Positions 49,043 through 63,425 of a stretch of DNA of 64,000 bases are shown in pieces. The first letter of the stretch is position 1; every line of letters starts with the position of its first letter. The position numbers and the translations under genes were made by a program. The stretch is from a virus, in the IMG/VR virus record IMGVR_UViG_3300046816_000078; one strand, 5' to 3'. Under the pieces are notes generated by a model that had not been told where the DNA came from, ran no database searches, and worked only from the letters and a program-made list of their open reading frames with translations.

Positions 49043-49046
49043 ATAG

Positions 49047-49770: not shown

Positions 49771-49785
49771 TTAGGCGTTAAAGAA

Positions 49786-49917: not shown

Positions 49918-49931
49918 ATTTCCCCCCTTTC

Positions 49932-50147: not shown

Positions 50148-50169
50148 GTGATACCTCCCTTATCAATAG

Positions 50170-50240: not shown

Positions 50241-50362
50241 ATGCGGATTACACTTAGCTCTTTACCGGCCGGATTATCTGCACCGTGTAATCCTTCCCTG
50301 TATGGTCGTGAGAATCATACAGGGATCTTAGACCTAGATCACGAGGAAATAGGTGGTCTAAA

Positions 50363-50512
50363 TTAGTACCGCGAGCGGCGCTTTGCCGGGGTTTCCTTAG
50401 CCTTATCGGCCTTGTAATGCTTAAGGAAATTCAGTTCACCCCAGGTAAGTGTTACCTCATTGCCATCACTAACGAACGTAATGGTCCTATCATCAAAATC
50501 TACAACAGTCAT
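50363..50512 (-). CDS. Hypothetical protein (49 aa)
   Basis: MTVVDFDDRTITFVSDGNEVTLTWGELNFLKHYKADKAKETPAKRRSRY with AGGGAG SD. Confidence 0.45.
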   Translation of the reverse strand: MTVVDFDDRTITFVSDGNEVTLTWGELNFLKHYKADKAKETPAKRRSRY

Positions 50513-50682
50513 TGCGACTCCCTAACGGGCATCCCTTAATTAATGTGCCCTAGGTAGTAAAGGGATTCATACCTACCCAGGATTCTAAAAGTTTATGGGT
50601 CGTTTGCCCTCGACCTAATTGCCGCCTCGCTAGTTTATAGTCTGCCTATCTCAAGACGTTCCGCCCAGACTTATTCAATTAG

Positions 50683-50755
50683 TAGCGGGTACCGGCTTTG
50701 CTCCGGTGGTTTCAGTTTATGAGGCTGACGTGTTACTGAACTACACTAACCCGCG
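50683..50755 (-). tRNA. tRNA-Met-like (CAT), atypical
   Basis: Anticodon loop CTCATAA. C1-U72 mismatch, T-loop AGCAAAG instead of TTCRANY, and a D-loop without GG. Confidence 0.45.
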
Positions 50756-50818
50756 ATGAGGGGATTTCCTATTTAGATTATAGTAGTTTTTGGAGATCCC
50801 TTAAAGTCTAACTACTCG

Positions 50819-50900
50819 GGTGTCCTACGAGATTCGCACTCGCTATTGCATTACGCACGGATTCACAGTCCGATCCCTCAGCTATTTGGGTCAAGACACC
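50819..50900 (-). tRNA. tRNA-His (GTG) with encoded G-1 and enlarged (about 13-nt) variable region
   Basis: 8-bp GGTGTCTT/AGGACACC acceptor (G-1:C73) closely resembling E. coli tRNA-His as recalled. Anticodon loop CTGTGAA, T-loop TGCGAAT. 82 nt long. Confidence 0.6.
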
Positions 50901-50968
50901 ATAGCGTCCAACGGACGCGATAATGATTACCAATCGTAAGATGGTAATCAGCATTACTTAAAGATTAG

Positions 50969-51145
50969 TTAGTCAGAACTGATAAGAACTAGCAACCCAA
51001 AACCAGCCGGGGCTATCTTAATAGATGTTACTGGCATCTCTCCGCGATTCCTGATAATCTCTGATGTAAGGTCAGGAACCTTAAGGAATACGTCTAGGTC
51101 ATCTGGCAGCTTGTGAACTGCTGCTTTGAATTCTGCCATATTCAT
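50969..51145 (-). CDS. Hypothetical protein (58 aa)
   Basis: Start at MNMAEFKAAV (GGAAG SD). The longer track ORF would overlap tRNA-Ala. Confidence 0.4.
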   Translation of the reverse strand: MNMAEFKAAVHKLPDDLDVFLKVPDLTSEIIRNRGEMPVTSIKIAPAGFGLLVLISSD

Positions 51146-51237
51146 ATCTGGACTTCCAATCTGTAATAGGTGATAGTTTCTCTGGGTATCAATCTGATAC
51201 CTCGGACAGTCACTAACAAACATCCTGTTTTTATTCG

Positions 51238-51311
51238 TGGAGCATAACGGATTTGAACCGATGACATTCTGATTGCAAATCAGACGCTCTACCAAGCTGA
51301 GCTAATGCCCC
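51238..51311 (-). tRNA. tRNA-Ala (TGC)
   Basis: Acceptor GGGGCAT/ATGCTCC with the G3-U70 identity pair. Anticodon stem TCTGA/TCAGA with loop TTTGCAA. Confidence 0.85.
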
Positions 51312-51409
51312 ATTGAAAGAACTATTTCACTATCATTCTAGTCCGTTGGCACGGTGGATAGTTTCGTTTGGCTGCCAAACCTCTACGCGATTAATCCATA
51401 GTTCTCAAG

Positions 51410-51491
51410 TGCCGGATACTGGATTTGCACCAATGAAACCAGAGGTAACGGTTTTACAAACCGCGAGCTTTGTCTACTTGCATAATCCGGC
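51410..51491 (-). tRNA. tRNA-Tyr (GTA), class II with long variable arm
   Basis: Acceptor GCCGGAT/ATCCGGC, anticodon loop TTGTAAA, variable arm TACCTCTGGTTTC, T-loop TGCAAAT. Confidence 0.8.
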
Positions 51492-51552
51492 GTGTCGTAC
51501 AACGATCGTAACAGTCGCCACTGTCATTTTCTCGAAGTATCTTCACCTACTA

Positions 51553-51647
51553 GGACGGGCAAGCACATCGAAAAAAGTGCAAAACACCAGGTCACAAGCT
51601 GTCTACCTGCGACGTTGCACCTTACCGCCGCGTCGTGCCCGTCCTAA
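51553..51647. other. About 95-nt nested inverted repeat at the divergence point of the minus and plus blocks
   Basis: AGGACGGGCA...TGCCCGTCCT encloses GTGCAA...TTGCAC and CAGGT...ACCTG. Its arms are related to sequence at 7036-7090. Confidence 0.6.
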
Positions 51648-51683
51648 ATAGTAACGATCGCTTCACCTCCCCAAAACTAGGGC

Positions 51684-51726
51684 TTGACATCTGCCCCAAA
51701 CTCGACTAAGCTGATCTTAGATCAGC
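51684..51726 (+). promoter_or_regulatory. Sigma70-like promoter plus overlapping 8-1-8 palindrome (operator candidate)
   Basis: TTGACA (51684-51689), 17-nt spacer, TAAGCT (51707-51712). GCTGATCT-T-AGATCAGC at 51710-51726. Confidence 0.55.
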
Positions 51727-51750
51727 AAACAACCTAGTCAGGGAGTCAAG

Positions 51751-52074
51751 ATGAGGGCAGGCGGCGAAATCCGGGGGAGCGCAGCGGACCGACGTGCGCG
51801 GCGTATCAAGCTCATCTGCACCTATGGCGACGGCGTAAAGGTTGCCTGCGTACACTGCGCCAAGCTGGTTACGGACACTGGCATGGAGGTTGACAAGATC
51901 ATTCCCGGTAGCCAGGGCGGGCGTTACGTCTGGGCAAACATCCTTCCTAGCTGCTGCGACTGCAACCGTAAGCGCAGCGACAAGACGACAGTTGCGGAAA
52001 TTCGCAAACTGCAAGGAATGCTGATTCTTTCCTCCGCTCGCGAGCGTGCGCAGTTCGCGGAGCTGGCACTATGA
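51751..52074 (+). CDS. HNH endonuclease
   Basis: CVHC...VDKIIPGSQGGRYVWANILPSCCDCNRKR motif with GGGAG SD. Confidence 0.75.
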   Translation: MRAGGEIRGSAADRRARRIKLICTYGDGVKVACVHCAKLVTDTGMEVDKIIPGSQGGRYVWANILPSCCDCNRKRSDKTTVAEIRKLQGMLILSSARERAQFAELAL

Positions 52075-52265
52075 GGCGGCTAGTGGTCACCGCACCTAAG
52101 CGGGCAATGCACATTTACATAATGACATCGGACGGGCGCATTATGGTCCGTAAGGCGAACACAGGATTTAAGCAGCGCGGAATCGTTGCCAATCCAGCGA
52201 TGCGAAACACGCAGACGCTAGTAGACATCGCATGGCGCGATGGTATGCGAAAGGTCGTGAAGTAA
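52071..52265 (+). CDS. Hypothetical protein
   Basis: 64-aa ORF with an ATGA overlap. Shares the M-x-SDGR-x-x-x-R core with the next gene. Confidence 0.55.
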   Translation: MRRLVVTAPKRAMHIYIMTSDGRIMVRKANTGFKQRGIVANPAMRNTQTLVDIAWRDGMRKVVK

Positions 52266-52495
52266 TGGCGAAGATCTCAGCCAACGGTGCGCATGAGATT
52301 GCGCGTATCCGCGTAGCTAGCCCTGCTGGGTATCCTTACCTCTGGGTGATGTGCAGCGATGGCCGTGTTCTTACCCGCGCTACCGGCGAGCTAGGCGACG
52401 GCTACACGGTCGCGTATCGCGGTCTGCGGCGCAATCTGCGTACCCGTGAGGCACTGCTAAGGATCGCTCAGATTCGCGGCTACCGCGTGCTCTGA
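52265..52495 (+). CDS. Hypothetical protein (paralog of previous)
   Basis: Start at MAKISANG via a TAATG overlap. Contains WVMCSDGRVLTRA. Confidence 0.55.
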   Translation: MAKISANGAHEIARIRVASPAGYPYLWVMCSDGRVLTRATGELGDGYTVAYRGLRRNLRTREALLRIAQIRGYRVL

Positions 52496-52701
52496 GCGCT
52501 CTAGGCAGGCAGGACAGCCCGGATAGTGCCGTAGGCACACGTGCGGCTCTGCCGCTTGACACTAGGTCGCCGGGCTGGTATTGTTGTACTTGAGACACCG
52601 GCCACGGGACCGTGAAGGGCCGAAGCAACCCTAAAAATAGGGAGGTGTCCGGGCCTGCCGAAGCACCGAAGCACCCAAAGATTTTTCAAACTTTCTTAAA
52701 C

Positions 52702-52756
52702 CCGCAGGTCAGAGGCACCACCGAAATTTGACAAGCGGGCCGAACTGCCGTAATGT
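52702..52756 (+). promoter_or_regulatory. Promoter P1 with upstream CCGCAGGTCA site
   Basis: CCGCAGGTCA (52702-52711), 16-nt gap, TTGACA (52728-52733), 17-nt spacer, TAATGT (52751-52756), then AGTGAATGTAAGGCA. Confidence 0.7.
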
Positions 52757-52971
52757 AGTGAATGTAAGGCACCGGGGAGCAAGCGGGAACCGGGAGCGCA
52801 CGGATCTTGAAAACTCAAAAGTGGCTGGTGTACCGGCAAGGGGTTGCGGTAGCGATGGTTCTCAGATTCGCGATGAAAGCTCCGAGGGTTGATAAATCCA
52901 GCAAATGATTTTAGCTGAATTCGCGCTAACGCTAGATGCAAGCGCTCCAAAGGCTAAATGAAAGGCTCACA

Positions 52972-53256
52972 ATGTTCGATGCAATGACCGTTCGCGACCA
53001 AATCGGAATGATGAACGTGCTCGCAATATCGGGCGGTCGGTGGTTTTACGACAATTCGGAATGCACGGTAATTCTCCCCGTGCGCTACGGCTATAAGGTC
53101 GTCGTCAAGTACAATGAGGGCAGCGACGATTACACCGTTACCCGTCTGCACGTTCGCGGAACCAAGGTCACCGATAAGGGAACCAAAACCGGCATCTATT
53201 GCGACAATCTGGGCGAGGTTGCCTATCGCGCTAGCTGCTATCGTGACGAATTCTGA
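52972..53256 (+). CDS. Hypothetical protein
   Basis: Start at MFDAMTVRDQ (GAAAGG SD). 94 aa. Confidence 0.6.
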   Translation: MFDAMTVRDQIGMMNVLAISGGRWFYDNSECTVILPVRYGYKVVVKYNEGSDDYTVTRLHVRGTKVTDKGTKTGIYCDNLGEVAYRASCYRDEF

Positions 53257-53265
53257 GAGGGAACA

Positions 53266-53487
53266 ATGGTTATAGGTGTCGCGCTTGTAGAGCGCAACGA
53301 TAGCGGCGGCGTCAAATTCAGCCTCACCGATGATGATAGCCGTATTCGCGCTTACGTCGAAAAGGCTATGGGCATTTACGCGGTGCGCGATTCGCACGAT
53401 GAGCCGGTGCATGTCGGTTCCGCTCTTTACCGCAGCGCACTAGCGGCCACTCGCCGTTATGAGGAATGGGCAAAGGCGCATGGTTAA
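53266..53487 (+). CDS. Hypothetical protein
   Basis: 73-aa ORF with GAGGGA SD. Confidence 0.6.
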   Translation: MVIGVALVERNDSGGVKFSLTDDDSRIRAYVEKAMGIYAVRDSHDEPVHVGSALYRSALAATRRYEEWAKAHG

Positions 53488-53731
53488 AAGGACCGCGTTG
53501 CCATTCGAGGAACAGCGCTCATATAACGGGGCGCTTTTCCTCATTCAGATAAACGTCGAGCAACTAGAAAGGCTCTTTATTGAGGTAATCGGATTTGATG
53601 AAAGGCGTGCTAGGCTAATCCCTTTCATCGTTAACCAGTATGGCCTTTCCGCGCAGCCTGCTAAAGGTGGCCGCGTGGTTGTGCTAATGAATCCCGATCA
53701 TGGATATGACGTAGCACTAGACGTTTTTTAG
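53480..53731 (+). CDS. Hypothetical protein
   Basis: Start at MVKRTALPF, overlapping the upstream stop (ATGGTTAA). Confidence 0.5.
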   Translation: MVKRTALPFEEQRSYNGALFLIQINVEQLERLFIEVIGFDERRARLIPFIVNQYGLSAQPAKGGRVVVLMNPDHGYDVALDVF

Positions 53732-53739
53732 GAGACGCA

Positions 53740-53895
53740 ATGAATAGCCCGGCGACCCGCGACTTTCTGTGCAACCTGGAAAAGGATGAAATCGCACAGG
53801 AATTCTGGGTAATGAATTACCGCCACGCGCTGACCTTGGCCGTGCCATTCGTGGCCGCGCTGCTTATGGTCATTGCCGCCATCGTCGTTAGCTAA
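53740..53895 (+). CDS. Small C-terminally anchored membrane protein (51 aa)
   Basis: MNSPATRDFLCNLEKDEIAQEFWVMNYRHALTLAVPFVAALLMVIAAIVVS with AGGAG SD. Confidence 0.5.
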   Translation: MNSPATRDFLCNLEKDEIAQEFWVMNYRHALTLAVPFVAALLMVIAAIVVS

Positions 53896-53911
53896 GAAAG
53901 GACAAACGCAA

Positions 53912-54130
53912 ATGACCACCTACGTTTATCACGCTTATCTCGGTATTAAGTGGGAGTCCGGTTATGACTTCGGGCTATTCCATAAGAAGGCGGACGCTAA
54001 GAAGGCGTGCCAAGACGAGCAGGGCGATACGGTAATTGTCTGGAACAATTCAGACCGGCACCGTTCATTCGCTCCGTCGTCACTATTCAGCGACGGTACG
54101 TGGACCGTTACGCGCCGTCCTGTTCACTGA
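53912..54130 (+). CDS. Hypothetical protein
   Basis: Start at MTTYVYHAY (AAGAAAGGA SD). 72 aa. Confidence 0.6.
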   Translation: MTTYVYHAYLGIKWESGYDFGLFHKKADAKKACQDEQGDTVIVWNNSDRHRSFAPSSLFSDGTWTVTRRPVH

Positions 54131-54316
54131 CGAATAACCATTCACGTTAAAGATACCGTATTCCGATTGGGGTCCTGGCGGAAAGCAATGCAAGTTGCTG
54201 ACCATATCAGTGCAGACTTTGGCCAGGAAATAAGGATGATCACCGGGAGGGCGAGCGCAATACTTGGCCTTTGTGCCAAGCAAACGGCGATCGGATAATG
54301 CGGGAGTGAATAACAA

Positions 54317-54389
54317 GCGCCGTTAGCTCAGAGGATAGAGCAACGGTTTCCTAAACCGTGTGTCATAGGTTCAAGTCCTATACGGCGCG
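54317..54389 (+). tRNA. tRNA-Arg (CCT)
   Basis: Acceptor GCGCCGT/ACGGCGC, D-arm TAGCTCAGAGGATAGAGC, anticodon stem ACGGT/ACCGT with loop TTCCTAA. Confidence 0.85.
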
Positions 54390-54407
54390 CTCTGAAATTC
54401 AAGCACA

Positions 54408-54500
54408 ATGAAAGGGCATCACATGCTCATCGTCTTTATTCTTATGATCGTGGTTATCGTCGCGGCGTGTGGCGTCGCCATTCTGGAATGCGGGAGGTAA
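54408..54500 (+). CDS. Small membrane protein (30 aa)
   Basis: MKGHHMLIVFILMIVVIVAACGVAILECGR. Its 3' end supplies the GGGAGG SD of the next gene. Confidence 0.35.
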   Translation: MKGHHMLIVFILMIVVIVAACGVAILECGR

Positions 54501-54503
54501 ACA

Positions 54504-54899
54504 ATGATCAGTTGCGCGGTTAAGCAAATCGCTTACAAGAGGGCACAGGGACCGTGGGGTGGCGCGACAATTAGCGCCGATGGTTTCATGGTGCCCGATG
54601 GTGCCGACGCTTACGCGGTCGCAATTAGCGGCACGCTTTCCATTCACGAGAATGCCAGCTTTGCGACATTCGTCGCGGCATTCGATATGATAATGGCTGA
54701 CATGGGCGAGGCGGATTATGTCGGTGTCTTCCATGACGATGTTAAGCTGACCATTGATTTCAACGTGGTTGCCGTGGTCGATTCGACCGATGAGGTTGAC
54801 GCGCTGTACGCCGCTGGCAATCCTGTCACGGGTGGCGCGTATTACTTCGCCACGGGTGACGGGTACTGGCCGCAGGGAACGCCGTCAGAGTACGCCTGA
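54504..54899 (+). CDS. Hypothetical protein
   Basis: 131-aa ORF with GGGAGG SD. Confidence 0.65.
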   Translation: MISCAVKQIAYKRAQGPWGGATISADGFMVPDGADAYAVAISGTLSIHENASFATFVAAFDMIMADMGEADYVGVFHDDVKLTIDFNVVAVVDSTDEVDALYAAGNPVTGGAYYFATGDGYWPQGTPSEYA

Positions 54900-55007
54900 G
54901 ATCGATTCTAAGCCTCTCAGACCGCTAGGGTAGGCGATCATACCGGGTCGCCTGCCAAACGCCGTCAGCGTGGCTGTGAGGGCCGCGCAGACAGACAGGA
55001 TCGCATC

Positions 55008-55202
55008 ATGCAGACACAGACTCTCACCCGCGCAGAGCGTGACGAGCTTACCAAGGTTCACCGCGCTATCGCCCGGATTCACAAGAGGGTTAACAAGATC
55101 ACGACCGCGCAGCACGCACGGAATGAGCTGTCAACCGCACTAGACGCGCAGCTCGCAATCTCTGACGCGCTGGTTGCCGTCAGCAAGGCAATGGAGGTTT
55201 AA
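55008..55202 (+). CDS. Hypothetical protein
   Basis: 64-aa helical ORF. Confidence 0.5.
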   Translation: MQTQTLTRAERDELTKVHRAIARIHKRVNKITTAQHARNELSTALDAQLAISDALVAVSKAMEV

Positions 55203-55207
55203 TCACA

Positions 55208-55558
55208 ATGGTCAGCTACGCGCAGGCTCGCGCAATGGACCCGAATTACAACGCGGATGAAAGCTCCTATGCATGGCGCATTACCCGCGATCACCTCGAA
55301 TCCGAGACTGTTAGCATTCACGGTCCGCACAATGCGACCGATGCGCAGCTCGCAATTCTCGCGCACCCAATCAAGAATGCGGATCAGCTTACGCGATTCC
55401 GCATTTACGATGATGATGACGAGCTGTATTTCTCGGGCGTATTCCTGGGCGATTCCGAAAGTGAGGAAGCGTTCGGCCCGTTGGATGATTTCGGTGCCCC
55501 GGACTCTGGCGCTACTCGGATCGATTACCTGCGAGGCGAGGTGTGGGAGACGCTGTAA
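55208..55558 (+). CDS. Hypothetical acidic protein
   Basis: 116-aa ORF with GGAGG SD. Confidence 0.65.
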   Translation: MVSYAQARAMDPNYNADESSYAWRITRDHLESETVSIHGPHNATDAQLAILAHPIKNADQLTRFRIYDDDDELYFSGVFLGDSESEEAFGPLDDFGAPDSGATRIDYLRGEVWETL

Positions 55559-55600
55559 CAGGCTGGCGAGGCCAGAGTTTTTCTCAAAGTTTTTCGTTTG

Positions 55601-55654
55601 CCCTGGTCAGGGGCTTGCTCACGATTTGACAAGCTCCCGGCCAGCCTGTAATGT
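55601..55654 (+). promoter_or_regulatory. Promoter P2 with degenerate upstream site
   Basis: CCCTGGTCA ends at 55609, 16-nt gap, TTGACA (55626-55631), 17-nt spacer, TAATGT (55649-55654), then AGTGGATGTAGGGCA. Confidence 0.7.
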
Positions 55655-55798
55655 AGTGGATGTAGGGCAGAACGGGCAGGTCGGGACTGAGAACCGAAGG
55701 ATTCCTAAGTCGGAATCGCGTGGTCAGAAGTCCACCTTTGATGGTTCTGCGAATTACCTACCAAGATCGGCCAGCCTCGCATGAAAGGCTGGCAACGC

Positions 55799-55872
55799 AG
55801 GCGATTAGCTCAGTTCGGTAGAGCGCTGCTCCTACAAAGCAGATGCCATCGGTTCAAATCCGATATCGCCTA
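55799..55872 (+). tRNA. tRNA-Val (TAC), apparent C33
   Basis: Acceptor AGGCGAT/ATCGCCT, D-arm TAGCTCAGTTCGGTAGAGC, anticodon stem CTGCT/AGCAG with loop CCTACAA. Confidence 0.7.
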
Positions 55873-55912
55873 CTCAAACAAGACAACGGCATAGACCGAA
55901 AGGCAAAGCAAA

Positions 55913-57064
55913 ATGAGCACTCGCGAAATCGATCTCACTCCTGCTGAATTCGCACTCACCTCCAACAAGATCGCCAAGCTTAACGCCCGCGCCGCTAAGC
56001 GTGGCTGGACTGGAATCCTTACCGTTAGCGGCGAGGCTTTCACCGAAGTTACCGACAATGGCGTTGGCCTCAAGCGTGAGCGTCAGATGGTACACGTTAC
56101 CATTTCCGGCAATCCCCCGAAGTACGACGGCTGGACTTTCCTCGCTCGCGCCGATTGGGCCGATGGCGGAATGGTCCTGTTCACCGCGCCCGGTGTCGAT
56201 GGCATCGATCGCTCGGGAATTACCGAAGGTTCGTGCGATCACTGCGGAATCAACCGCTATCGCAAGAGCACTTACATTGTCCGCAGTGACAATGGTGAGC
56301 AGGTCCAAGTCGGATCTACTTGCCTAAAGGATTTCCTCGGGTGGAACACTAACCCGGTGTGGGTCATGCCGCCGTCCGACAATGACCTGTTTGGCGAGGG
56401 TGGCTTTGGCCATTCGGCCCCGGTCTATTCCGTCGATACCATTCTGGCCGCTGCCTGGGCTTGCATTGAGCAGTTCGGTTATGTTCGCTCCGGTGATGAG
56501 GGCGCGACTAAGGGAACGGTGCTTGCCGTACTCGATCCGCGTACCCCTGCTGAGCGTGAGCTTGCCCAGAAGATTCTGCCGCACGTTGCGGAGTCTGCCA
56601 GTGCGGCCACCATGATTCGCGAATTCATTCTGTCGGATGAATTCTCGGGCTATGGCGAGTACGTCACGAACCTTAAGAACATCGCTCGCAGCGAATTCGT
56701 TGAGCCGCGCTTTGTCGGCTTCCTCGTTTCCGCTCCGCAGGCATGGGCCAAGTCTCGCGAGCGTTCGCTTATCAAGCAGCGCGAGAATAACGAGCTTACC
56801 AATGAATTCCTTGGCGAGATCAAGGATAAGTTGGAGCTTCCCGTGACGCTCAAGTCCATTCGCTTTATCGAAGGACAGTTCGGCGTTACCTCGCTCTATT
56901 CCTTCGTGACCGATGATGGCCACCTGGTTAAGTGGTTCTCAAGTCGCGCCGTGTTCCGCGATGGTGACGTTGACCGCAGCTTCACTCTCAAGGGTACCGT
57001 GCGTAAGCATGACGAGTACAACGGGACCAAGAGTACCGTTCTTACCCGTTGCTCGGAAGTCTGA
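55913..57064 (+). CDS. Hypothetical protein with central Cys cluster
   Basis: 383-aa ORF with GAAAGG SD. CDHCG...STC suggests a zinc site. The two antisense track ORFs were rejected. Confidence 0.7.
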   Translation: MSTREIDLTPAEFALTSNKIAKLNARAAKRGWTGILTVSGEAFTEVTDNGVGLKRERQMVHVTISGNPPKYDGWTFLARADWADGGMVLFTAPGVDGIDRSGITEGSCDHCGINRYRKSTYIVRSDNGEQVQVGSTCLKDFLGWNTNPVWVMPPSDNDLFGEGGFGHSAPVYSVDTILAAAWACIEQFGYVRSGDEGATKGTVLAVLDPRTPAERELAQKILPHVAESASAATMIREFILSDEFSGYGEYVTNLKNIARSEFVEPRFVGFLVSAPQAWAKSRERSLIKQRENNELTNEFLGEIKDKLELPVTLKSIRFIEGQFGVTSLYSFVTDDGHLVKWFSSRAVFRDGDVDRSFTLKGTVRKHDEYNGTKSTVLTRCSEV

Positions 57065-57116
57065 CACGTCTTGCGTCCGTAGGACGCTGAGAGCAACGCT
57101 AAGCCGTCCGAACGGG

Positions 57117-57143
57117 CCGACCCTAGCAACCATGTAGGGTCGG
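57117..57143 (+). terminator. Stem-loop without U-tract (possible I-shaped terminator)
   Basis: CCGACCCTA-gcaaccatg-TAGGGTCGG, 53 nt after the 57064 stop. A second hairpin GCGTCC-gta-GGACGC lies at 57073-57087. Confidence 0.35.
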
Positions 57144-57229
57144 CCCTGATATCCGCTCAGAATCTATCTGAGAGCTGTCTAGCGCCATAGGTGCGCGACG
57201 CAGCCACGTAAACCAGAGGGAGACAGATC

Positions 57230-57415
57230 ATGCAGCCCACCGTTCCTAGCCCTGCCACCGTCCGCGCCAGCCTCACCATGGCCCGTATCAAGCGGGACAA
57301 TGATCGCCGTAGCGCTCTGCGCCGTGCTGGCGTCTCGGGTGCGCTCACCCGCGCAGAGCTGGCCGCGCTGCCCATCCTTCGGGACAATGCGCCCCACGCT
57401 AGGCGCGTGCGGTAA
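57230..57415 (+). CDS. Hypothetical basic protein
   Basis: 61-aa ORF with GGGAG SD. Confidence 0.5.
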   Translation: MQPTVPSPATVRASLTMARIKRDNDRRSALRRAGVSGALTRAELAALPILRDNAPHARRVR

Positions 57416-57627
57416 TGCCCACGTTCACAGCGGGTGATACCGTCGAGTTTGAACACGTCAAGTGGGCGGCTGACGGTAACGGCGAGCTTACGATCTTCGT
57501 TTCATGGATCGTTGAGCCTGCCACGATCACGCGGGTATGGACCCGTGGCCCTAACGTCACTCTCCGTACTCTCAGCGGGAAGATCTTCGTTCGGAGGGTA
57601 GATTCCAAGTCGATCCGATGGAAGTAA
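57415..57627 (+). CDS. Hypothetical protein
   Basis: 70-aa ORF with a TAATG overlap. Confidence 0.55.
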   Translation: MPTFTAGDTVEFEHVKWAADGNGELTIFVSWIVEPATITRVWTRGPNVTLRTLSGKIFVRRVDSKSIRWK

Positions 57628-57646
57628 TTTTCAAGATTTTTCATCG

Positions 57647-57701
57647 TCGCAGGTCAGCGGCCTGGCCAGGATTTGACAACCGGGTCGCCGCCCTGTAATG
57701 T
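57647..57701 (+). promoter_or_regulatory. Promoter P3 with upstream CGCAGGTCA site
   Basis: TCGCAGGTCA (57647-57656), 16-nt gap, TTGACA (57673-57678), 17-nt spacer, TAATGT (57696-57701), then TAGTGATGTAAGGCA. Confidence 0.7.
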
Positions 57702-58649
57702 TAGTGATGTAAGGCAAGACGAACGGGCAGGTCGGGACTGCGGCCGAAGGATCTCTAAGTCGGGATCTCGCGGTGAGAAGTCCACCTTTGATGGTTCGTC
57801 GCAGTAAGCCGAAACGAACGGCTAACCTCGGTAGTGGGGCCAGGGTGCGATTGGGCACCGCCACGGGAAAGGTTAGCAACCATAAACTAAACCACAAGCC
57901 AAAGCGGAACACGTGGCTAAGGGAATTCGCATGGTGGATTCCCGGCCCGGCGAGGTGACTCAATGGGCTTAGCAAGTGCCAGGTCTTGTGGATTGCGGCT
58001 AGTTTCGATTGTCCATAGGGTAATCGTGTTTCGGGACTTAGCCGCGTAAGCCAAACTGAGAAAGTCCTTCTTCTTTATCTAGCTTTAGCGGCCTACGGGC
58101 ATCGCACATAGTAGAGACAGAGACTAGCTCAATGGCCGGTGATAACGGTTGTACGTGGATTGTTAGGGACGCTTAGGCTCGGGCTTCCGCCCGGATAGCA
58201 ACCGAAACAATGACGATTACGCGGGTTCGATTCCCGCATTCACCGCTAGTGCGGGCAGGCAAAGAACCGGGAGCCGTCGCTGAATGCGATAACGGCAGGG
58301 GGTTTGTCCGCACATAAAGTTGGACAATGGGAACCGTCAAGAGCCTTTAGCCATAGATTAACCCTAGGCTGGCAGCTACGGCACATAAGCGCGATAAGCA
58401 GACAGCAACCGAAAGGGCCTGTTTGCTGCCTTGCGTGAGCGGTGTTTATGAACTGTATTCAGTGGGCGAATGGTGAAAGATCCGCGTTAGAGCGGGCGCG
58501 TTTATCGCAAGGGAGCGAAGCGGTTAAAACGGCTGACAATAGCTGACGGTATCCGGGGCGTGCGCACAATCCGGGGAGAATAAATAAGACGATAGGTCGG
58601 CCCATTGTTCTCAACTCTTATCCACCACACAGCAGAAAGGACAGGCTAA
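57702..58649 (+). ncRNA. About 950-nt ORF-poor, hairpin-rich transcribed region downstream of P3
   Basis: No SD-led ORF. Contains a conserved leader (57702-57810), the tRNA-like module at 58138-58245 and long hairpins such as GTGCGG...CCGCAC at 58249-58312. Confidence 0.5.
58138..58245 (+). ncRNA. tRNA-like / tmRNA-TLD-like module
   Basis: 5' GGTGATAACGGTTGTACG resembles a tmRNA 5' end. T-arm GCGGG-TTCGATT-CCCGC followed by ATTCACC-G. Interior hairpin CGGGC-TTCC-GCCCG. No anticodon arm and no G3-U70. Confidence 0.4.
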
Positions 58650-58799
58650 TGATGCAAGAGATAAAGACCACTTACACCACAGTTTGTAAAGACTGCGGCG
58701 AGACTTTCACCGAAACTACTACTACGGGTCCTGTCAATATCTGCCAGCCCTGCGCCAAGGTGCGGAGTGCCGCGATATTCGCGATGCCCAGTGAGTAAA
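58650..58799 (+). CDS. Small zinc-ribbon protein (49 aa)
   Basis: MMQEIKTTYTTVCKDCGETFTETTTTGPVNICQPCAKVRSAAIFAMPSE with two CxxC pairs and GAAAGGA SD. Confidence 0.55.
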
Positions 58800-58807
58800 A
58801 ATTCTGT

Positions 58808-58881
58808 GGGCCGGTATTCCAATAGGCAGAGAAACCGGATTCAAACCCCGGACAGTGAGGGTTCAAATCCCTCCCGGCCTA
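58808..58881 (+). tRNA. tRNA with Leu anticodon CAA but short variable loop
   Basis: Acceptor GGGCCGG/CCGGCCT (G1-U72), A73, Leu-type D-loop AATAGGCAGAG. Anticodon loop TTCAAAC with an A31-C39 mismatch. T-arm GAGGG-TTCAAAT-CCCTC. Confidence 0.6.
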
Positions 58882-58893
58882 CTATAAAAACTT

Positions 58894-59035
58894 GACCGCT
58901 GCCGATCATAGGGTTCGCGCCCGAAGCTGGCGAATGATTGGACTAGGTATCATGGGTTGCAAACCTGGCCTAGTGCGTGTATCGGATGGGTTAACACATT
59001 CGTTACGGGTTGGGGTTCGATTCCCCCAGCGGCCT
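58894..59035 (+). ncRNA. tRNA-like module with long internal irregular hairpin
   Basis: 5' GACCGCTG pairs with 3' CAGCGGCC after the T-arm GGGG-TTCGATT-CCCC. Internal helices CGAATG/CATTCG and ACTAGG/CCTAGT. Too long (142 nt) for a tRNA. Confidence 0.4.
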
Positions 59036-59077
59036 CTAATTCAAATCAAATCCACCACACGAAAGGCCCGATTCCAA

Positions 59078-59212
59078 ATGGACCCGGACTACGTTTTCAA
59101 CCTTTACAAGCTCGCGGTGCGCGATGGTGACAAGGCTCTTGCCGCCGATTACATGGCGAGCCTGCGTCAGTACATGGCGAATGGCGGGTATGCTCCGCTC
59201 GGTTGGAGGTAA
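59078..59212 (+). CDS. Hypothetical protein (44 aa)
   Basis: Start at MDPDYVFNLYK. The longer track ORF would run through the tRNA-like RNA. Confidence 0.5.
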   Translation: MDPDYVFNLYKLAVRDGDKALAADYMASLRQYMANGGYAPLGWR

Positions 59213-59217
59213 TCAGA

Positions 59218-59733
59218 ATGGCCCGGCGCACAATTCATCTACCCGCCGACGTGAACCTAGCGCACCTTAAGCGCATTCACGATGATGCCACCGCGCTGCT
59301 AGACAAGTATGGTCTAGCGGCTAGGGGCTGGACAGCCGTTTACGACAATACGAAAAGGCGGGGCGGGCAGTGCCGTTACGCCGCTAAGGAAGTCGGGTTT
59401 AGCGTTCACCTGTTCGCTATCTGGACTTACAAAGCAGCAATGAATACCGTGCTGCATGAAATAGCCCACGCACTTTGCCCGAACCATGGGCATGACAAAG
59501 TGTGGAAAGCTAAGGCTATCGAGATTGGCTGCACTGGTGCGCGTCAATACGATGGCGCGGCGCAAGGTAGCTACCCTAGCCAAAGGCACGCACGCAACTG
59601 GGTTGGTACCTGCCCGAATGGCCACACTCAGACTCGCGCCCGTCAGCCATTGACAGGTCGTAAGTATAGCTGTGGCAGGTGCTCGCCCGGCGTATTCAGT
59701 TACGCCGCTATTATCACATGGAGGAAAAAGTGA
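59218..59733 (+). CDS. SprT-like zinc metalloprotease domain protein
   Basis: HEIAHAL (HExxH) followed by a C-terminal zinc ribbon CPNGH...CGRC. GGAGG SD. Confidence 0.6.
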   Translation: MARRTIHLPADVNLAHLKRIHDDATALLDKYGLAARGWTAVYDNTKRRGGQCRYAAKEVGFSVHLFAIWTYKAAMNTVLHEIAHALCPNHGHDKVWKAKAIEIGCTGARQYDGAAQGSYPSQRHARNWVGTCPNGHTQTRARQPLTGRKYSCGRCSPGVFSYAAIITWRKK

Positions 59734-59885
59734 GCGCTCTATTCGGAGTCGGCAGTGATCGCGAAAAGGACGATCTTGCCGCGCAGGAATTGGATCAACT
59801 CGAAACTGTCGAAGAACTGCGGCAACTAGCGGCCGAGGATTTGGCCGCTGAATTCGGCACCGACGTTTCAGAATGGCTGGTATGA
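59718..59885 (+). CDS. Hypothetical acidic protein
   Basis: Start at ATG 59718 or GTG 59730. Product about 51-55 aa. Confidence 0.45.
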   Translation: MEEKVSALFGVGSDREKDDLAAQELDQLETVEELRQLAAEDLAAEFGTDVSEWLV

Positions 59886-59888
59886 CCT

Positions 59889-60098
59889 GTGTGCAATCGT
59901 CACGCCCAGCATGAGGTAATGCTACGGTGCGAGCATAAGCGTCAGATCTGGCGCTGCCTTTTCTGCGGCCACCGCACACAGGAAAACGGAAAGCTGCCCA
60001 TCGCTTCACGCTATATGCCTTGGCGATGGTACACAGAACTTCGGAACCGGCAACGTGCCATAGGTTCCTATCTAGTAGTCATAAACCGGGAGGTATAA
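59889..60098 (+). CDS. Possible Cys/His-rich small protein
   Basis: 69-aa ORF with a GTG start and weak SD. Confidence 0.35.
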   Translation: MCNRHAQHEVMLRCEHKRQIWRCLFCGHRTQENGKLPIASRYMPWRWYTELRNRQRAIGSYLVVINREV

Positions 60099-60313
60099 TG
60101 ATTCAGTCCACGCTAGTTAACATTCGCGGAGATTCTTCCCCGATCGCTTTGGACGTTGGGCCGATGCCCGACAATACCTACGCCTACGGATTCACCGATT
60201 CGGATGGGTGGGTCATAAGTGAGGCTCGTTATGCGAATGCGGAGAGCGCTAAGCACGATGCGCGGCGTCCGCAGCAGATGAACCTTAAGGCTAATTTGGA
60301 GCCTCTACCGTGA
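60098..60313 (+). CDS. Hypothetical protein
   Basis: Start at MIQSTLVN with GGGAGG SD. Confidence 0.6.
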   Translation: MIQSTLVNIRGDSSPIALDVGPMPDNTYAYGFTDSDGWVISEARYANAESAKHDARRPQQMNLKANLEPLP

Positions 60314-60519
60314 CACCGGATGAATCCGAATATGCCTGGGCTCATTTCGATCTAGGCTACGGCGCGGATGGTCAGTGGCGCTACGCGATAGGTGATCACC
60401 TTAGCAAGAATGCTTTTGCTAACAAGGTCGATGCCTACCGCTACGCCACTAGGCCGCAGCGTCTAACTGATGATGGTCAGCTAATCCCCGATATTAGGTG
60501 GTCGCCGGAACTCAACTAA
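60310..60519 (+). CDS. Hypothetical protein
   Basis: GTGA overlap start. 69 aa. Loosely similar to the previous product (...A.A..YA.RP). Confidence 0.5.
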   Translation: MTPDESEYAWAHFDLGYGADGQWRYAIGDHLSKNAFANKVDAYRYATRPQRLTDDGQLIPDIRWSPELN

Positions 60520-60593
60520 GACAGCCGTCCGATCGAAACTACTAGTAAACAAACCATAAAACGCAGCACAACATCCTATGGAGGATAACTACC

Positions 60594-60824
60594 ATGGCTC
60601 AGGCTAAGACTCTTACTCAGGTCGGCTCTAACGTTGCTTACAGCGTGGCCGGTTCCAAGCTTACGATCGTGGTTGACCTTGACCAGGTTGCCGACGCTCC
60701 CGCGCCCGGTAAGAAGATGAGGCAGGTCGCCAACTCGGGTGGCTTTAGCGAGCTTCCCGACGTACAGGTCGATGGGCTGAACGTGCGGCTGAATCTGTAC
60801 GCTGGCGTCTACCCGGCGCGGTAA
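60594..60824 (+). CDS. Hypothetical protein
   Basis: 76-aa ORF with GGAGGA SD. Confidence 0.65.
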   Translation: MAQAKTLTQVGSNVAYSVAGSKLTIVVDLDQVADAPAPGKKMRQVANSGGFSELPDVQVDGLNVRLNLYAGVYPAR

Positions 60825-60992
60825 GCTCTCAGATCGATTCTAAGAGCCTCACAACCTAGACCCACCCAACCCTACCAGGGATGTACCAAAGGCCGCTCAG
60901 CGTTGCTCTCAGAGCCGCACACGGCACGACAAGGCAGACGCCCCCGGTAGGGATCGATCACGAGCCATGTATGAGGCGGCTCGTGGTCGGCT

Positions 60993-61066
60993 GGTCCACT
61001 AGCTCAGTCCGGTAGAGCAGCGGGCTCTTAACCCGCGTGTCATAGGTTCAAATCCTATGTGGATCA
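60993..61066 (+). tRNA. tRNA-Lys (CTT)
   Basis: Acceptor GGTCCAC/GTGGATC, D-arm TAGCTCAGTCCGGTAGAGC, anticodon stem GCGGG/CCCGC with loop CTCTTAA. Confidence 0.85.
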
Positions 61067-61071
61067 CTCAA

Positions 61072-61144
61072 GGATCGCTAACTCAATGTGTAGAGTAACC
61101 GACTTTTAATCGGTAAGTTCTGGGTTCGAGCCCCAGGCGATCCA
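61072..61144 (+). tRNA. tRNA-Lys (TTT)
   Basis: Acceptor GGATCGC/GCGATCC, anticodon stem ACCGA/TCGGT with loop CTTTTAA, T-arm CTGGG-TTCGAGC-CCCAG. Confidence 0.85.
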
Positions 61145-61175
61145 CTTTGCTGACGCAAATAAGAAAGGAACACAC

Positions 61176-61373
61176 ATGATCCGTTATCCAGGCGGTAAGC
61201 GAATTACCGTGCATCTATCCGATGGCACCGATCGTAAGATGGTCGTGTCGCTAATCCAGATCGTAAGTGATCCATCCGGTAACGGTATCATCGCTAGGTT
61301 TGGTCGCGACGATGGTAACGGCTGGAATGAATTCCTCGCCGCTCCGCTCACAAGCATTGTCAGTTGGGACTAA
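61176..61373 (+). CDS. Hypothetical protein
   Basis: 65-aa ORF with AAGAAAGGA SD. Confidence 0.6.
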   Translation: MIRYPGGKRITVHLSDGTDRKMVVSLIQIVSDPSGNGIIARFGRDDGNGWNEFLAAPLTSIVSWD

Positions 61374-61531
61374 TGACAAGGCTGACAATCTACGGACGGT
61401 GGGCGGTTTACAACGCCGACATTAAGACAGTCGAAACTCGTCTCGATCAATTCGAGGTTGAACTAATGCCGGATGAAAGCTGGAAAGCACCGGCAGGATT
61501 TAACGTATCCGTGGTTAAGGTGAACACATGA
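61373..61531 (+). CDS. Hypothetical protein (52 aa)
   Basis: MTRLTIYGRWAVYNADIKTVETRLDQFEVELMPDESWKAPAGFNVSVVKVNT. TAATG overlap upstream and ATGA overlap downstream. Confidence 0.5.
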   Translation: MTRLTIYGRWAVYNADIKTVETRLDQFEVELMPDESWKAPAGFNVSVVKVNT

Positions 61532-61737
61532 AAGATCATCGTGTGACAGCGTGGGTTAAATTCCTGGCTAAAGTTTCCGATCGGGAATTGATCCGATACA
61601 TCACCTCATGGGAACAAGCCCTAACGTGGTACGAGATCAAAACCTATTCGCACAATTCCAATGCTCGCGCACTAGCGGGAGCGTATGAAGTGCTGGACAT
61701 TCGTGCCAGAAAGCGGGAGAAAAATGCGCGAACGTAA
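61528..61737 (+). CDS. Hypothetical protein
   Basis: 69-aa ORF coupled to its neighbours. Confidence 0.55.
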   Translation: MKDHRVTAWVKFLAKVSDRELIRYITSWEQALTWYEIKTYSHNSNARALAGAYEVLDIRARKREKNART

Positions 61738-61891
61738 TCCCTGTGAAGTAGACAGGGCCGATATCGATGGTGCTGCATCACAGGCGCTATTCGAGTCAAC
61801 CTTTCCGGCTAAGCATGTGGTTAAGTACACTGCCCCGGTTGAAGAAGTCAAACAGCTAGAGCGTGAATTGTCCGCTCTGGAAAACAAGTAG
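61724..61891 (+). CDS. Hypothetical protein (55 aa)
   Basis: Start at MRERNPCEV with GGGAG SD. Confidence 0.5.
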   Translation: MRERNPCEVDRADIDGAASQALFESTFPAKHVVKYTAPVEEVKQLERELSALENK

Positions 61892-61903
61892 AAGGGTAAG
61901 TAA

Positions 61904-62164
61904 GTGAGTCAGAGCAGGAGTCATTACCAGGAGCGGTCAGGGCTTTTCGGTACGAGCGGAAAGCTCGCCGGTATCGAGGGCCGCACGGGTCTTAGGATCA
62001 GGCAGGAAAGGCGCATTGCCAATAGCTGCACGATCACCGATGAGCATAGCCACGGGGTTTGGCTATTCGACTCCGGTCGGCGCGACCTTTCCAAGTGCAA
62101 CGGTGCCCCGTGGCCTACCGCTGCGAGCCGTAAGGCTGATGCCAGTTCGGAGGTAAGCGTATGA
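61904..62164 (+). CDS. Hypothetical protein
   Basis: 86-aa ORF with a GTG start. Confidence 0.4.
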   Translation: MSQSRSHYQERSGLFGTSGKLAGIEGRTGLRIRQERRIANSCTITDEHSHGVWLFDSGRRDLSKCNGAPWPTAASRKADASSEVSV

Positions 62165-62421
62165 TGGATGACGAATATCGCGGTTACGATCCCGCCCATT
62201 ACGCAGGAGGGGCAGAGCCGTTTGATGCTCCCATTCCCCCATTCAATCCGCCCCCGGTAAACGTGTTCCTTTCAGCGGCTCAGCTTCGCAGGCTTTTCGG
62301 CTTGCTGAATTCGCTGGACATTCACAAGGTGAAATTTACCGGCAACCTGGAATTCGACGGCCATAACTTCATGGTCGGATACGATGTTACGAACGAAGAA
62401 CACTTCGTTTCGTTCAATTAA
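62161..62421 (+). CDS. Hypothetical protein
   Basis: 86-aa ORF with GGAGG SD and an ATGA overlap. Confidence 0.6.
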   Translation: MMDDEYRGYDPAHYAGGAEPFDAPIPPFNPPPVNVFLSAAQLRRLFGLLNSLDIHKVKFTGNLEFDGHNFMVGYDVTNEEHFVSFN

Positions 62422-62439
62422 GAAAGAAAGGAAACACCT

Positions 62440-62655
62440 ATGGCCACCGATGGAAAGGCTTCTGTTCCCGAGGTAAAGGCGTATTTCGCTAGCGATGATG
62501 TTGCCGAGGATGGCACCGTCATTCGTGAAGGAAAGCCGCTCACCGCTCGGGACCTCATCGCCCTTAAGCGTGGCGAATCGGCGGAAGGTTCCGATAACGC
62601 TAACGCTTATGACGACCTGGCTATCGGTATCGGTAACGGTACCCTGACTTACTGA
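62440..62655 (+). CDS. Hypothetical protein
   Basis: 71-aa ORF with AAGGAAA SD. Confidence 0.6.
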   Translation: MATDGKASVPEVKAYFASDDVAEDGTVIREGKPLTARDLIALKRGESAEGSDNANAYDDLAIGIGNGTLTY

Positions 62656-62696
62656 CCTACTCATGGAGGGCTGCGCATTCCTTACCACGCAGACTC

Positions 62697-62849
62697 GGGG
62701 CTGAAAGGCTATCGACGTAATTCCTAATGCGGGTCCGAATCCCGCCGCGCTGATCGAGAATGAAATGGTGCTTGTCGCCTATCAAAGCGCGATCGTTTAA
62801 CAGGCAAGACTGGGAATTGCGGACTACGGTTCAATTCCGTACAGCTCCA
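62697..62849 (+). ncRNA. Miniature tmRNA-like RNA (tRNA-Ala-like domain, P2 helix, short tag-like ORF)
   Basis: 5' GGGGCTGAAAGGCTATCGACG and 3' TACGG-TTCAATT-CCGTA-CAGCTCC-A give a 7-bp acceptor with G3-U70. 9-bp helix CGTAATTCC/GGAATTGCG. Internal frame GCC...TAA (62744-62800) encodes AALIENEMVLVAYQSAIV. Confidence 0.6.
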
Positions 62850-62928
62850 CAGGTCACCCACCGTCATATCGGGACGCTGATATGATCAGGTCCGTAAGTG
62901 GGTTGCGGGTAACGACGGTTACCCTAAA

Positions 62929-63010
62929 GGGACAAGTACGCGGTGTCTCGCATTACTTAAATCCGTACATCGGCCGGTAATGCGGCAGGGTTCGATTCCC
63001 TGTTGTTCCA
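62929..63010 (+). ncRNA. tRNA-like module (acceptor plus T-arm, interior 8-bp hairpin or pseudoknot)
   Basis: GGGACAA/TTGTTCC acceptor (G3-U70), A73, T-arm CAGGG-TTCGATT-CCCTG. The interior CGCATTAC...GTAATGCG helix crosses GTACG...CGTAC. No 5-bp/7-nt anticodon arm could be found. Confidence 0.4.
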
Positions 63011-63082
63011 CTATAAGAATTCTCGGGAGTGACTAACGGGTAACCCTAGTCGGGCTATGTGTGCCTCTCCTGCTCCCGCGAA

Positions 63083-63143
63083 TGTGGCTAGGGGTTGATC
63101 TCCATTAAGCGTGGTGGCTTAGTGATGTTGATCCCCCTAGCCA
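63083..63143 (+). other. Long perfect-stem hairpin in the RNA island
   Basis: GTGGCTAGGGG...CCCCTAGCCAC (11 bp) enclosing ATTAAGC/GCTTAGT. A second long hairpin at 63285-63323 (CTCCCTG...CAGGGAG) abuts tRNA-Glu. Confidence 0.5.
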
Positions 63144-63326
63144 CTCAATTTAAAGACGTTGCAAATGGCAGTTGGGATTACGGTTTATATCCCTATCGGT
63201 AACGAGTGTCGCCCGACAATAACCGTTAAGGGCGATCACTGATGTTTGCACGCGGTGAATACCGATGCGAGATTCGGTAAAACTCCCTGGCTGATTAGCT
63301 TGATCACTAATTGGTCAGGGAGTCAA

Positions 63327-63401
63327 GGCCCTTTCGTCTAGTCAGGATTAGGATACGAGGTTTTCACCCTCGCGACACGGGTTCAAATCCCGTCGGGGTC
63401 A
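63327..63401 (+). tRNA. tRNA-Glu (TTC)
   Basis: GGCCCTTTCGTCTAG... closely parallels bacterial tRNA-Glu. Anticodon stem CGAGG/CCTCG with loop TTTTCAC. T-arm ACGGG-TTCAAAT-CCCGT. Confidence 0.85.
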
Positions 63402-63425
63402 CTATGAATTAGCAGAAAGGAAAAC

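Follow-up and report, generated by a model that had tools for sequence, protein, structure and literature searches.

The DNA analysed here is IMG/VR record IMGVR_UViG_3300046816_000078, a stretch of 64,000 nucleotides (nt) to which we refer as the window. It is part of the genome of an uncultured tailed phage, has a G+C content of ~52% and includes among its genes a large terminase, a portal, a protease/capsid gene and open reading frames (ORFs) of tape-measure size, as well as a class II ribonucleotide reductase and a family A DNA polymerase. ARAGORN and Rfam identify 20 canonical tRNAs in it. The subject of this study is a discrete 108-nt RNA unit on the plus strand at 58138-58245, which extends from G58138 to a discriminator base, G58245, and is followed by CUA (Table 1). 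A preliminary description, made from the letters of the sequence, had proposed a tRNA-like module here, in which an acceptor and a consensus T-arm are present and an anticodon arm is missing; covariation among related phages supports that proposal. The terminase of the window is only 33-37% identical to terminases of Rhodococcus, Arthrobacter and Mycobacterium phages; because of this kinship, and of an Lsr2 gene on one related contig, the host is likely an actinobacterium.

The limits proposed for the element hold to the nucleotide. The sequence GGTGATAACGGTTGTACG begins exactly at 58138, and the T-arm, the 3′ acceptor strand, the discriminator and the CTA trailer follow each other as described. 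The acceptor is paired at five of seven positions (G1-C72, G2-C71, U3-A70, G4-C69 and A5-U68), with U6·U67 and A7·A66 unpaired, and the absence of a G3-U70 pair is confirmed. The irregular interior helix is also present: ATTGTT/AACAAT and CGGGC-TTCC-GCCCG are paired in the minimum free energy fold, within an arm that comprises the helices GUA/UAC, CGU/ACG, AUUGUU/AACAAU, GG/CC, GCU(U)/(U)AGC and the apical CGGGC-UUCC-GCCCG (58180-58193) and that meets the T-stem with a gap of 0 nt. The parallel drawn between the 5′ end of the element and that of a tmRNA-like RNA at 62697 is loose, with agreement by eye at ~12 of 21 positions. Single-sequence folding recovers the acceptor, the arm and the T-arm; since the result is only mildly better than that of shuffled sequences (z = -1.9), the case for the element rests on comparison with relatives.

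Megablast and blastn searches with 57000-60000 and 57900-59100 gave no match among 50,697 phage records, and an IMG/VR search for related loci with the SprT-like and 383-amino-acid neighbour proteins gave nothing close. The 383-amino-acid neighbour has many metagenomic homologues, whose contigs supplied the relatives: five phages with an 82-90% identical protein each carry an orthologue of the element (L002, L003, L004, L005/L006 and L007), and a pattern scan of metagenomes, in which 3 of 31 matches were genuine among the matches listed, added L016 and L023/L033. The pattern GGTGAYAACGGTTNNNCGTGG had 21 matches in 185,579 genomes and none with the full element among the matches listed, so that the element is unseen in prophages or bacteria; these large collections were scanned by exact pattern rather than by covariance model. 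Covariance model R1 finds one copy per related contig, in the window, L002, L003, L004, L005, L007, L016 and L023/L033. The resulting set consists of 8 distinct orthologues from related uncultured actinophage-like contigs.

Conservation among the orthologues sets in exactly at G1 (G58138) and ends after CACC-N73-CUA. In the structure drawn from their alignments a linker of 6 nt follows the acceptor, and a single arm built of six short helices leads to the T-arm. In this fold 87.8% of the cells are paired and 11 pairs are changed on both sides (it was also tested in a six-sequence version); none of 500 shuffles reached the observed scores, and in controls slid by 1-3 columns only 29-50% of the cells were paired. 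The arm helix GUA/UAC, for example, becomes CGG/CCG in L003, one arm pair occurs as U-A, C-G and G-C across the orthologues, and the middle pair of the T-stem changes from G-C to U-A in four of them. Acceptor positions 6/67 and 7/66 are unpaired in every orthologue, and with five pairs and two conserved mismatches the 7 + 5 register of a tRNA is therefore kept. The apical hairpin varies in sequence and length (it is 12 bp longer in L005), yet every orthologue has a helix there, closed by a tetraloop (for instance UUCC, UUCG or GCGA), and the purines of the arm's internal loops are invariant. Conserved G-U pairs place the RNA on the plus strand; a reading on the minus strand was rejected because these pairs would become C-A mismatches. 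Two further candidates were discarded, an attP-type tRNA fragment, for which a 5′ acceptor strand, covariation and the presence of five modules would not be expected, and a k-turn, which does not fit the subapical internal loop in the window sequence.

A functionless tRNA or tmRNA pseudogene in decay would be compatible with the imperfect acceptor, with the narrow distribution and with small T-arm defects in two orthologues, namely a UCCGAUU T-loop in L023 and a G·A mismatch in the T-stem of L016. However, the compensatory changes, which fall in four separate helices, the invariant single-stranded motifs and the sharp boundaries indicate purifying selection on the fold, and we consider a pseudogene very unlikely. 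The comparison validates the element as a structured, anticodon-less tRNA-like RNA that stands outside every curated family. We found no published description of it in the literature.

As in tRNA, the acceptor is stacked in the 7 + 5 register on a 5-bp T-stem with a UUCRANY-type T-loop; in place of an anticodon arm with a 7-nt loop there is an arm of ~25 bp capped by a tetraloop. ARAGORN reports a "tRNA-???" at 58154-58246 in the window and a tRNA-Arg(tcg) of 92 nt in L002 and L004, which would make the element a genuine odd tRNA, for instance an intron-containing tRNA-Arg. The supposed anticodon is, however, the UUCG tetraloop that caps the arm, and the cap reads UUCC, AUUC or GCGA in other orthologues. 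ARAGORN makes no call at the element in L003, L005 and L007, and the acceptor that it proposes, CGUGGAU (58154), is broken in L003 and L007, where those bases covary inside the arm. The Rfam tRNA model gives no reportable match on the element. Thus, the genuine-tRNA reading is effectively refuted, and we give it next to no weight.

Closer is the likeness to the tRNA-like domain (TLD) of tmRNA, the layout that the preliminary description had recognised and that the covarying fold bears out: the 5′ and 3′ ends close the acceptor, a GG-containing linker replaces the D-arm, a long helix replaces the anticodon arm, and the T-arm abuts that helix. With TLD-only tmRNAs the element shares that it is phage-encoded amid tRNA genes, has no anticodon and carries its T-arm directly after the helix. 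Membership in the tmRNA family, in contrast, could not be upheld. The Rfam tmRNA model (RF00023) scores 20.3 bits in a full-length alignment and 15.3 bits with the T-arm alone, so that most of a score far below the gathering cut-off of 47 comes from the T-arm. Instead of G3:U70 and A73, the alanine identity of tmRNA, the element has U3-A70 in 8 of 8 distinct orthologues and G or A as discriminator; its interior is one continuous hairpin of 57-82 nt, without resume codon, tag frame or pseudoknots in P2. The linker measures 6 nt, compared with ~10-13 nt in tmRNA, and the base of the long helix is Watson-Crick paired where tmRNA has G·A pairs. The sequence determinants for SmpB binding and charging by AlaRS (G3:U70 and the UUCGAC/GGAC junction) are absent. 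Moreover, the same phages already carry a separate, real TLD-only tmRNA (at 62697 in the window).

The tRNA-like T-arm and the mimicry of a tRNA elbow are shared with YrlA, and the element had been suggested to be a Y-RNA-like molecule, which would tether the Ro60 (Rsr) protein. YrlA RNAs mimic tRNA and some are phage-associated (PMC4201824). The idea gains no support from the Rfam YrlA model (RF02553), which matches the T-arm alone, at model positions 31-47, with 12.3 bits against a threshold of 69. The order of parts differs as well: the T-arm of the element stands beside the 3′ acceptor strand, as in tRNA, whereas that of YrlA is internal, and in place of a terminal Ro-binding stem the ends of the element form the acceptor itself. 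TROVE/Ro60 was not found among the 30 window ORFs scanned against Pfam, nor is there an unexplained ORF of ~500 amino acids in the window; genomes of these phages measure ~96 kb (as for L002 and L003), so that about one third of the genome falls outside the 64-kb window. A Y RNA is accordingly a reading with hardly any remaining probability.

Downstream of the element lies a second structured RNA, 290 nt long in the window, of which a profile search found 11 copies. They include L002 12141-12426, L003 12079-12335, L004 2596-2881, L005 12993-13293 and L007 6322-6586, and further L008 1352-1608, L016 2832-3084, L023 3271-3568 (minus strand) and L067 6474-6718. The block is better conserved than the surrounding proteins. 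Among its 72 predicted pairs 98.3% are formed and 10 are compensatory, values reached by none of 500 shuffles, although the alignment used for this test is also the one from which the structure was predicted. Rfam has no match to this RNA, no ORF is conserved in it, and an exact 21-mer from it had no match in IMG/VR. Nine copies follow the element and two follow genuine tRNAs, the element-less loci being confined to L008 (~4 nt after tRNA-Val) and L067 (~4 nt after tRNA-Leu-CAA). Every copy of the element stands directly upstream of this partner RNA, which begins 1-2 nt after CUA in L002, L003, L004, L007, L016 and L023.

Such constancy could mean that the element is a domain of a composite RNA and stays joined to, or reassociates with, the 290-nt RNA. 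All 11 copies of the partner have a tRNA-shaped 5′ neighbour, at a distance of 1-4 nt in nine of them, and the element is never found alone. GOLLD and ROOL are phage RNAs near tRNA islands, and the GOLLD linker sometimes holds tRNAs (PMC12286853). The likeness to these RNAs, which concerns the neighbouring 290-nt RNA and not the element, lies in a large structured phage RNA directly beside tRNA or tRNA-like genes; the partner matches neither Rfam family and is much smaller. A composite molecule is difficult to reconcile with L008 and L067, where the 5′ neighbour is an ordinary tRNA that must be freed to function, and with the hairpin of 62-73 nt that is tolerated between both RNAs in the window and L005. 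Covariation between the element and the 290-nt RNA was not noticed, no search having been aimed at it. Taken together, we judge this reading quite unlikely.

Table 1. Features of the tRNA-like element, its surroundings and other tRNA-like modules in the window.
Feature	Position	Strand	Basis or remark
Sister module with short GCAA-capped hairpin, GGUAAGG...GCUUACC-G-CUA	41435-41495	+	Sequence alone, without orthologues
Sister module GGGCUA-ACGGUU-short hairpin-T-arm-UAGCUC-A-CUA	41881-41934	+	Sequence
383-amino-acid protein, phrog_2319, Cys-rich motif	55913-57064	+	ORF
Repeated intergenic block with TTGACA-17-TAATGT	57628-57737	+	Three copies per genome in L002 and L003
Putative promoter	57673-57701	+	-35 TTGACA 57673-57678, 17-nt spacer, -10 TAATGT 57696-57701; inference from sequence
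Element, acceptor 5′ strand GGUGAUA (positions 1-7)	58138-58144	+	Pairs 1-5 in 8 of 8 distinct orthologues (one G-U)
Element, linker ACGGUU (surrogate D-loop)	58145-58150	+	Invariant in all orthologues
Element, long irregular arm (~70 nt)	58151-58220	+	10 of the 11 compensatory pairs
Element, T-arm GCGGG-UUCGAUU-CCCGC	58221-58237	+	Same as the Rfam tmRNA and tRNA consensus T-arm
Element, acceptor 3′ strand AUUCACC	58238-58244	+	Sequence, orthologue pairing
Element, discriminator and CUA trailer	58245-58248	+	G here, A in three orthologues
Hairpin spacer between element and partner RNA	58249-58321	+	Window (73 nt) and L005 (62 nt) only
Partner structured RNA (255-300 nt)	58322-58610	+	10-bp closing helix GAACAAUGGG/CCCAUUGUUC; one hairpin of variable length
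Larger module GACCGC...UGGGG-UUCGAUU-CCCCA-GCGGCC-U-CUA, just after tRNA-Leu	58894-59035	+	Sequence; relatives keep the 3′ part only
TLD-only tmRNA with G3:U70 and A73	62697-62849	+	Rfam tmRNA, 52.1 bits
tRNA-like RNA (82 nt) with G3:U70 and A73	62929-63010	+	Acceptor and inner helix covary in L002, L003, L004 and L007

The element is not the only tRNA-like module of this phage. The 11-mer GGTTCGATTCC, the core of its T-arm, occurs in five exact plus-strand copies outside canonical tRNAs (41474, 41913, 58224, 59014 and 62989), and with at most one mismatch there are 14 matches where 1.1 are expected. That the phage carries several such modules is thus confirmed. The elements at 41435, 41881, 58138, 58894 and 62929 had been described as one family built from acceptor, long hairpin and T-arm. 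They do have their architecture in common, and their T-loops are identical; no alignment among them is possible beyond the T-arm, and the hairpins at 41435 and 41881 are short. The family is therefore real as an architecture, but heterogeneous.

The RNA at 62697 is about 150-156 nt long in the window and is called "tmRNA" by Rfam. It retains GGGGCUGA...UCGA...GAC and the T-arm...CAGCUCCA, while its interior carries a variable insert whose apparent ORF is not conserved. Its orthologues measure 72-95 nt, and in L002, L004 and L007 the entire RNA has 72 nt, with a short hairpin as interior and without a tag frame. A blastn search with a TLD-only tmRNA against phages gave nothing useful. The 82-nt RNA at 62929 sits 76 nt after it and, because of its G3:U70 pair and A73, is possibly chargeable with alanine. 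In distant relatives ARAGORN calls tmRNAs with implausible tags, one of them permuted (L008 7421-8056, L010 12544-12870 and L066 5921-6088); L008 and L010, at least, have the same short TLD-only form (93 and 86 nt), and for this reason the calls look like artefacts. Further structured RNAs may be present in two non-coding plus-strand stretches of 300-385 nt, 63011-63326 and 41496-41880, each of which separates a tRNA-like module from the tRNA or gene that follows.

TLD-only tmRNAs that lack a coding sequence are found in mycobacteriophage DS6A, in some plastids and in jakobid mitochondria. The DS6A form is the model for a trans-acting role, as strong inhibition of tmRNA has been described for a similar molecule, which may act by titrating SmpB (PMC4131195, PMC11915505). 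By analogy, the element could be a decoy that titrates a host protein binding the acceptor, the T-arm or the elbow, with SmpB, EF-Tu, a tRNA-modifying enzyme or a defence toxin acting on tRNA 3′ ends as candidate targets. A decoy would be plausible in a genome that encodes a true domain-only tmRNA and an 82-nt RNA with G3:U70 and A73; the TLD-like architecture and the full-length alignment to the Rfam tmRNA model point the same way, and the conserved internal loops of the arm resemble a protein-binding surface. However, the element has no G3:U70, its discriminator switches between G and A, and in place of the UUCGAC...GGAC junction with its G·A pairs it carries Watson-Crick pairs, GUA/UAC, that covary to CGG/CCG. 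Among the ORFs scanned, none nearby encodes a partner protein, and a decoy leaves unexplained the obligatory place 5′ of the 290-nt RNA. We therefore regard a decoy as unlikely.

Upstream, the putative promoter of the non-coding region lies in an intergenic block that recurs ahead of other gene blocks and is probably a phage promoter cassette; a consensus promoter scan did not flag 57673-57701. The 77-nt segment 57812-57888 (plus strand) is 98.7% identical in L005 and 79-86% in L016 and L023, has a closing helix GGCUAACCU/AGGUUAGC and no Rfam match, and may be another small RNA in the operon leader. The 383-amino-acid protein encoded further upstream has no Pfam or PDB match. It is a hypothetical phage protein, widespread in phages of many hosts (Streptomyces, Salmonella, Vibrio and Aeromonas) and here often near tRNA genes; one JGI homologue is named "ribonuclease P protein component", which is probably a mislabel. 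Ro60, SmpB, RtcB and a CCA-adding enzyme had no matches among the window ORFs scanned. Among the tRNA genes, tRNA-Leu(CAA) and tRNA-Leu(TAG) are 73-75 nt long and lack the long variable arm usual for bacterial tRNA-Leu.

The A7 and ACGGUU linker of the element recur in the module at 41881 and in small hairpins of other phages. When IMG/VR was scanned for AACGGTT upstream of the T-loop core, the matches comprised ordinary tRNAs (span 47-51) and at least 39 distinct ones of short span (24-30 nt). The latter are hairpins of 43-48 nt that consist of a 5-bp acceptor, AA(C/U)GGUU, a few nucleotides, a 5-6-bp T-stem with UUCGAUU and the 3′ acceptor strand. At least five contiguous acceptor pairs in the fixed tRNA register are present in about half of these mini-hairpins, compared with ~1 expected by chance; an exhaustive parse yields a set of 44 strict elements from 27 sources among the matches listed. 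The mini-hairpins occur serially, on the gene strand in intergenic gaps, in sources that include L133, L081, L157 and L188. L133 (75-2630) holds six within 2.7 kb, all of them placed after a stop codon and ahead of the following ribosome-binding site, and in Mycobacterium phage Cuke (MG757156, L188, record 30000-39000) the gaps of the early operon contain seven strict copies together with about seven degenerate ones. The annotations of Cuke, Fowlmouth and MrMiyagi do not list these hairpins, and we found no published description of them in the literature. Their placement in successive gene-strand gaps is what a transcript punctuation signal would show, and from this placement we suggest that they may serve as such signals.

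The mini-hairpins resemble the element in the 5-bp acceptor, the unpaired A7, the A(C/U)GGUU linker, the UUCGAUU loop and a tmRNA score of about 20 bits (19-20 bits, with GG.UU aligned to the D-loop analogue of tmRNA); both 58138 and 41881 have this core. A gene-strand location in non-coding gaps is also common to both. In contrast to the element, which has 108 nt and a conserved 70-nt arm, the mini-hairpins are armless and have a 6-bp T-stem, their trailer is A-CGA instead of N-CUA, and they occur in many copies per genome between protein genes, whereas the element is single-copy between RNA genes. The RNAs thus form a graded series from armless (mini-hairpins) through a 5-bp arm (41881) to a 25-bp arm (58138).

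We propose that the element is a functional, non-decoding tRNA surrogate which host enzymes would cut out of a longer transcript, the same cut setting the 5′ end of the 290-nt RNA. We hold this proposal in even balance between acceptance and doubt. It is suggested by the sharp boundaries, by the tRNA-type trailer and by the real tRNAs that stand in the place of the element in L008 and L067. Boundaries, covarying fold, strand, trailer, obligatory adjacency to the partner RNA and kinship with the mini-hairpins belong to the observed features. In the window, N73 is followed by CT, often CTA, in 15 of 16 tRNA genes checked (48371-63402), and among these 16 tRNA-Gln alone has an encoded CCA. For RNase P, RNase Z and the CCA-adding enzyme an acceptor/T minihelix with an elbow suffices, and an encoded CCA blocks RNase Z; at the 3′ end of the element an encoded CCA is absent. 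The element would accordingly keep the part of a tRNA that end-processing enzymes measure, and a long capped helix would stand where a tRNA has its anticodon and D half. Five acceptor pairs, two stacked mismatches and five T-stem pairs would form a stack of ~12 layers, ending in an elbow built from the UUCGAUU T-loop and the GG of the linker, which probably touches that loop.

The plus-strand region of ~57.7-59.2 kb could then be read as a non-coding RNA operon consisting of promoter, leader, element, 290-nt RNA, tRNA-Leu and a further tRNA-like module. Cleavage by host RNase P would set the 5′ end at G58138, and a second cut, by RNase Z or an equivalent enzyme, would follow the discriminator (58245); the CCA-adding enzyme would then complete the 3′ end, leaving a stable RNA of ~108 nt. 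The 3′ cut would at the same time create the 5′ end of the 290-nt RNA, whose closing helix lies 1-2 nt past CUA in most relatives. Elsewhere among the related phages this job would fall to a genuine tRNA (Val or Leu). Transcription, the three enzymatic steps, the contact in the elbow and processing as the selected function are what we infer from the arrangement. Known cases in which RNase P and RNase Z define the ends of adjoining RNAs are the t-elements of plant mitochondria, mascRNA at the 3′ end of MALAT1 and the tRNA-like parts of the TMER transcripts of murine gammaherpesvirus-68. With these, the element shares a non-decoding or anticodon-less tRNA mimic beside another RNA, the processing being proposed here from sequence; in contrast, they are eukaryotic, organellar or from an animal virus, and none of them is known to have the AACGGUU linker or the long arm.

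Several points weigh against the surrogate proposal. Nothing in the 70-nt arm is required by the processing enzymes; its helices are nevertheless kept by compensation and its internal-loop purines invariant. Processing alone thus does not account for the selection seen; the conservation of the internal loops suggests a second, trans-acting role of the arm. The adjacency to the partner RNA could reflect shared transcription only, tight spacing of RNA genes being common in tRNA islands. Finally, the comparison comprises no more than eight distinct orthologues, all of them from closely related phages of which ours is uncultured, and in two (L023 and L016) the T-arm is slightly decayed.

More broadly, and more tentatively, we speculate that the element is the elaborate end of an undescribed, widespread phage class of anticodon-less AACGGUU elbows that would borrow RNase P, RNase Z and the CCA-adding enzyme. 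Here such an elbow would have been recruited to mature, or to partner, a new RNA of 255-300 nt, with the arm adding a function in trans. We consider this wider claim possible and somewhat doubtful.

In conclusion, the element is a variation on known mimics of tRNA and of the tmRNA domain, and its study has pointed to two more RNA classes that lack annotation. Codon supply or anti-defence is the role commonly ascribed to phage tRNA islands; as the present case shows, they also harbour conserved RNAs of which the elbow and the acceptor end are all that is left of a tRNA. For annotation, such RNAs account for spurious "tRNA-???" and "tRNA-Arg" calls by ARAGORN and for sub-threshold tmRNA matches in actinophages. 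The RNA at 58322-58610 is a well-supported new structured RNA and offers a small, tractable relative for puzzles of the GOLLD/ROOL type. If elements of this kind are indeed processing handles, they would represent a general, unannotated route by which phages cut and stabilise transcripts with the tRNA enzymes of the host, a bacterial-virus version of tRNA punctuation, and the culturable Mycobacterium phage Cuke, with ~14 copies of the mini-hairpin in its early operon, would offer an immediate test system.

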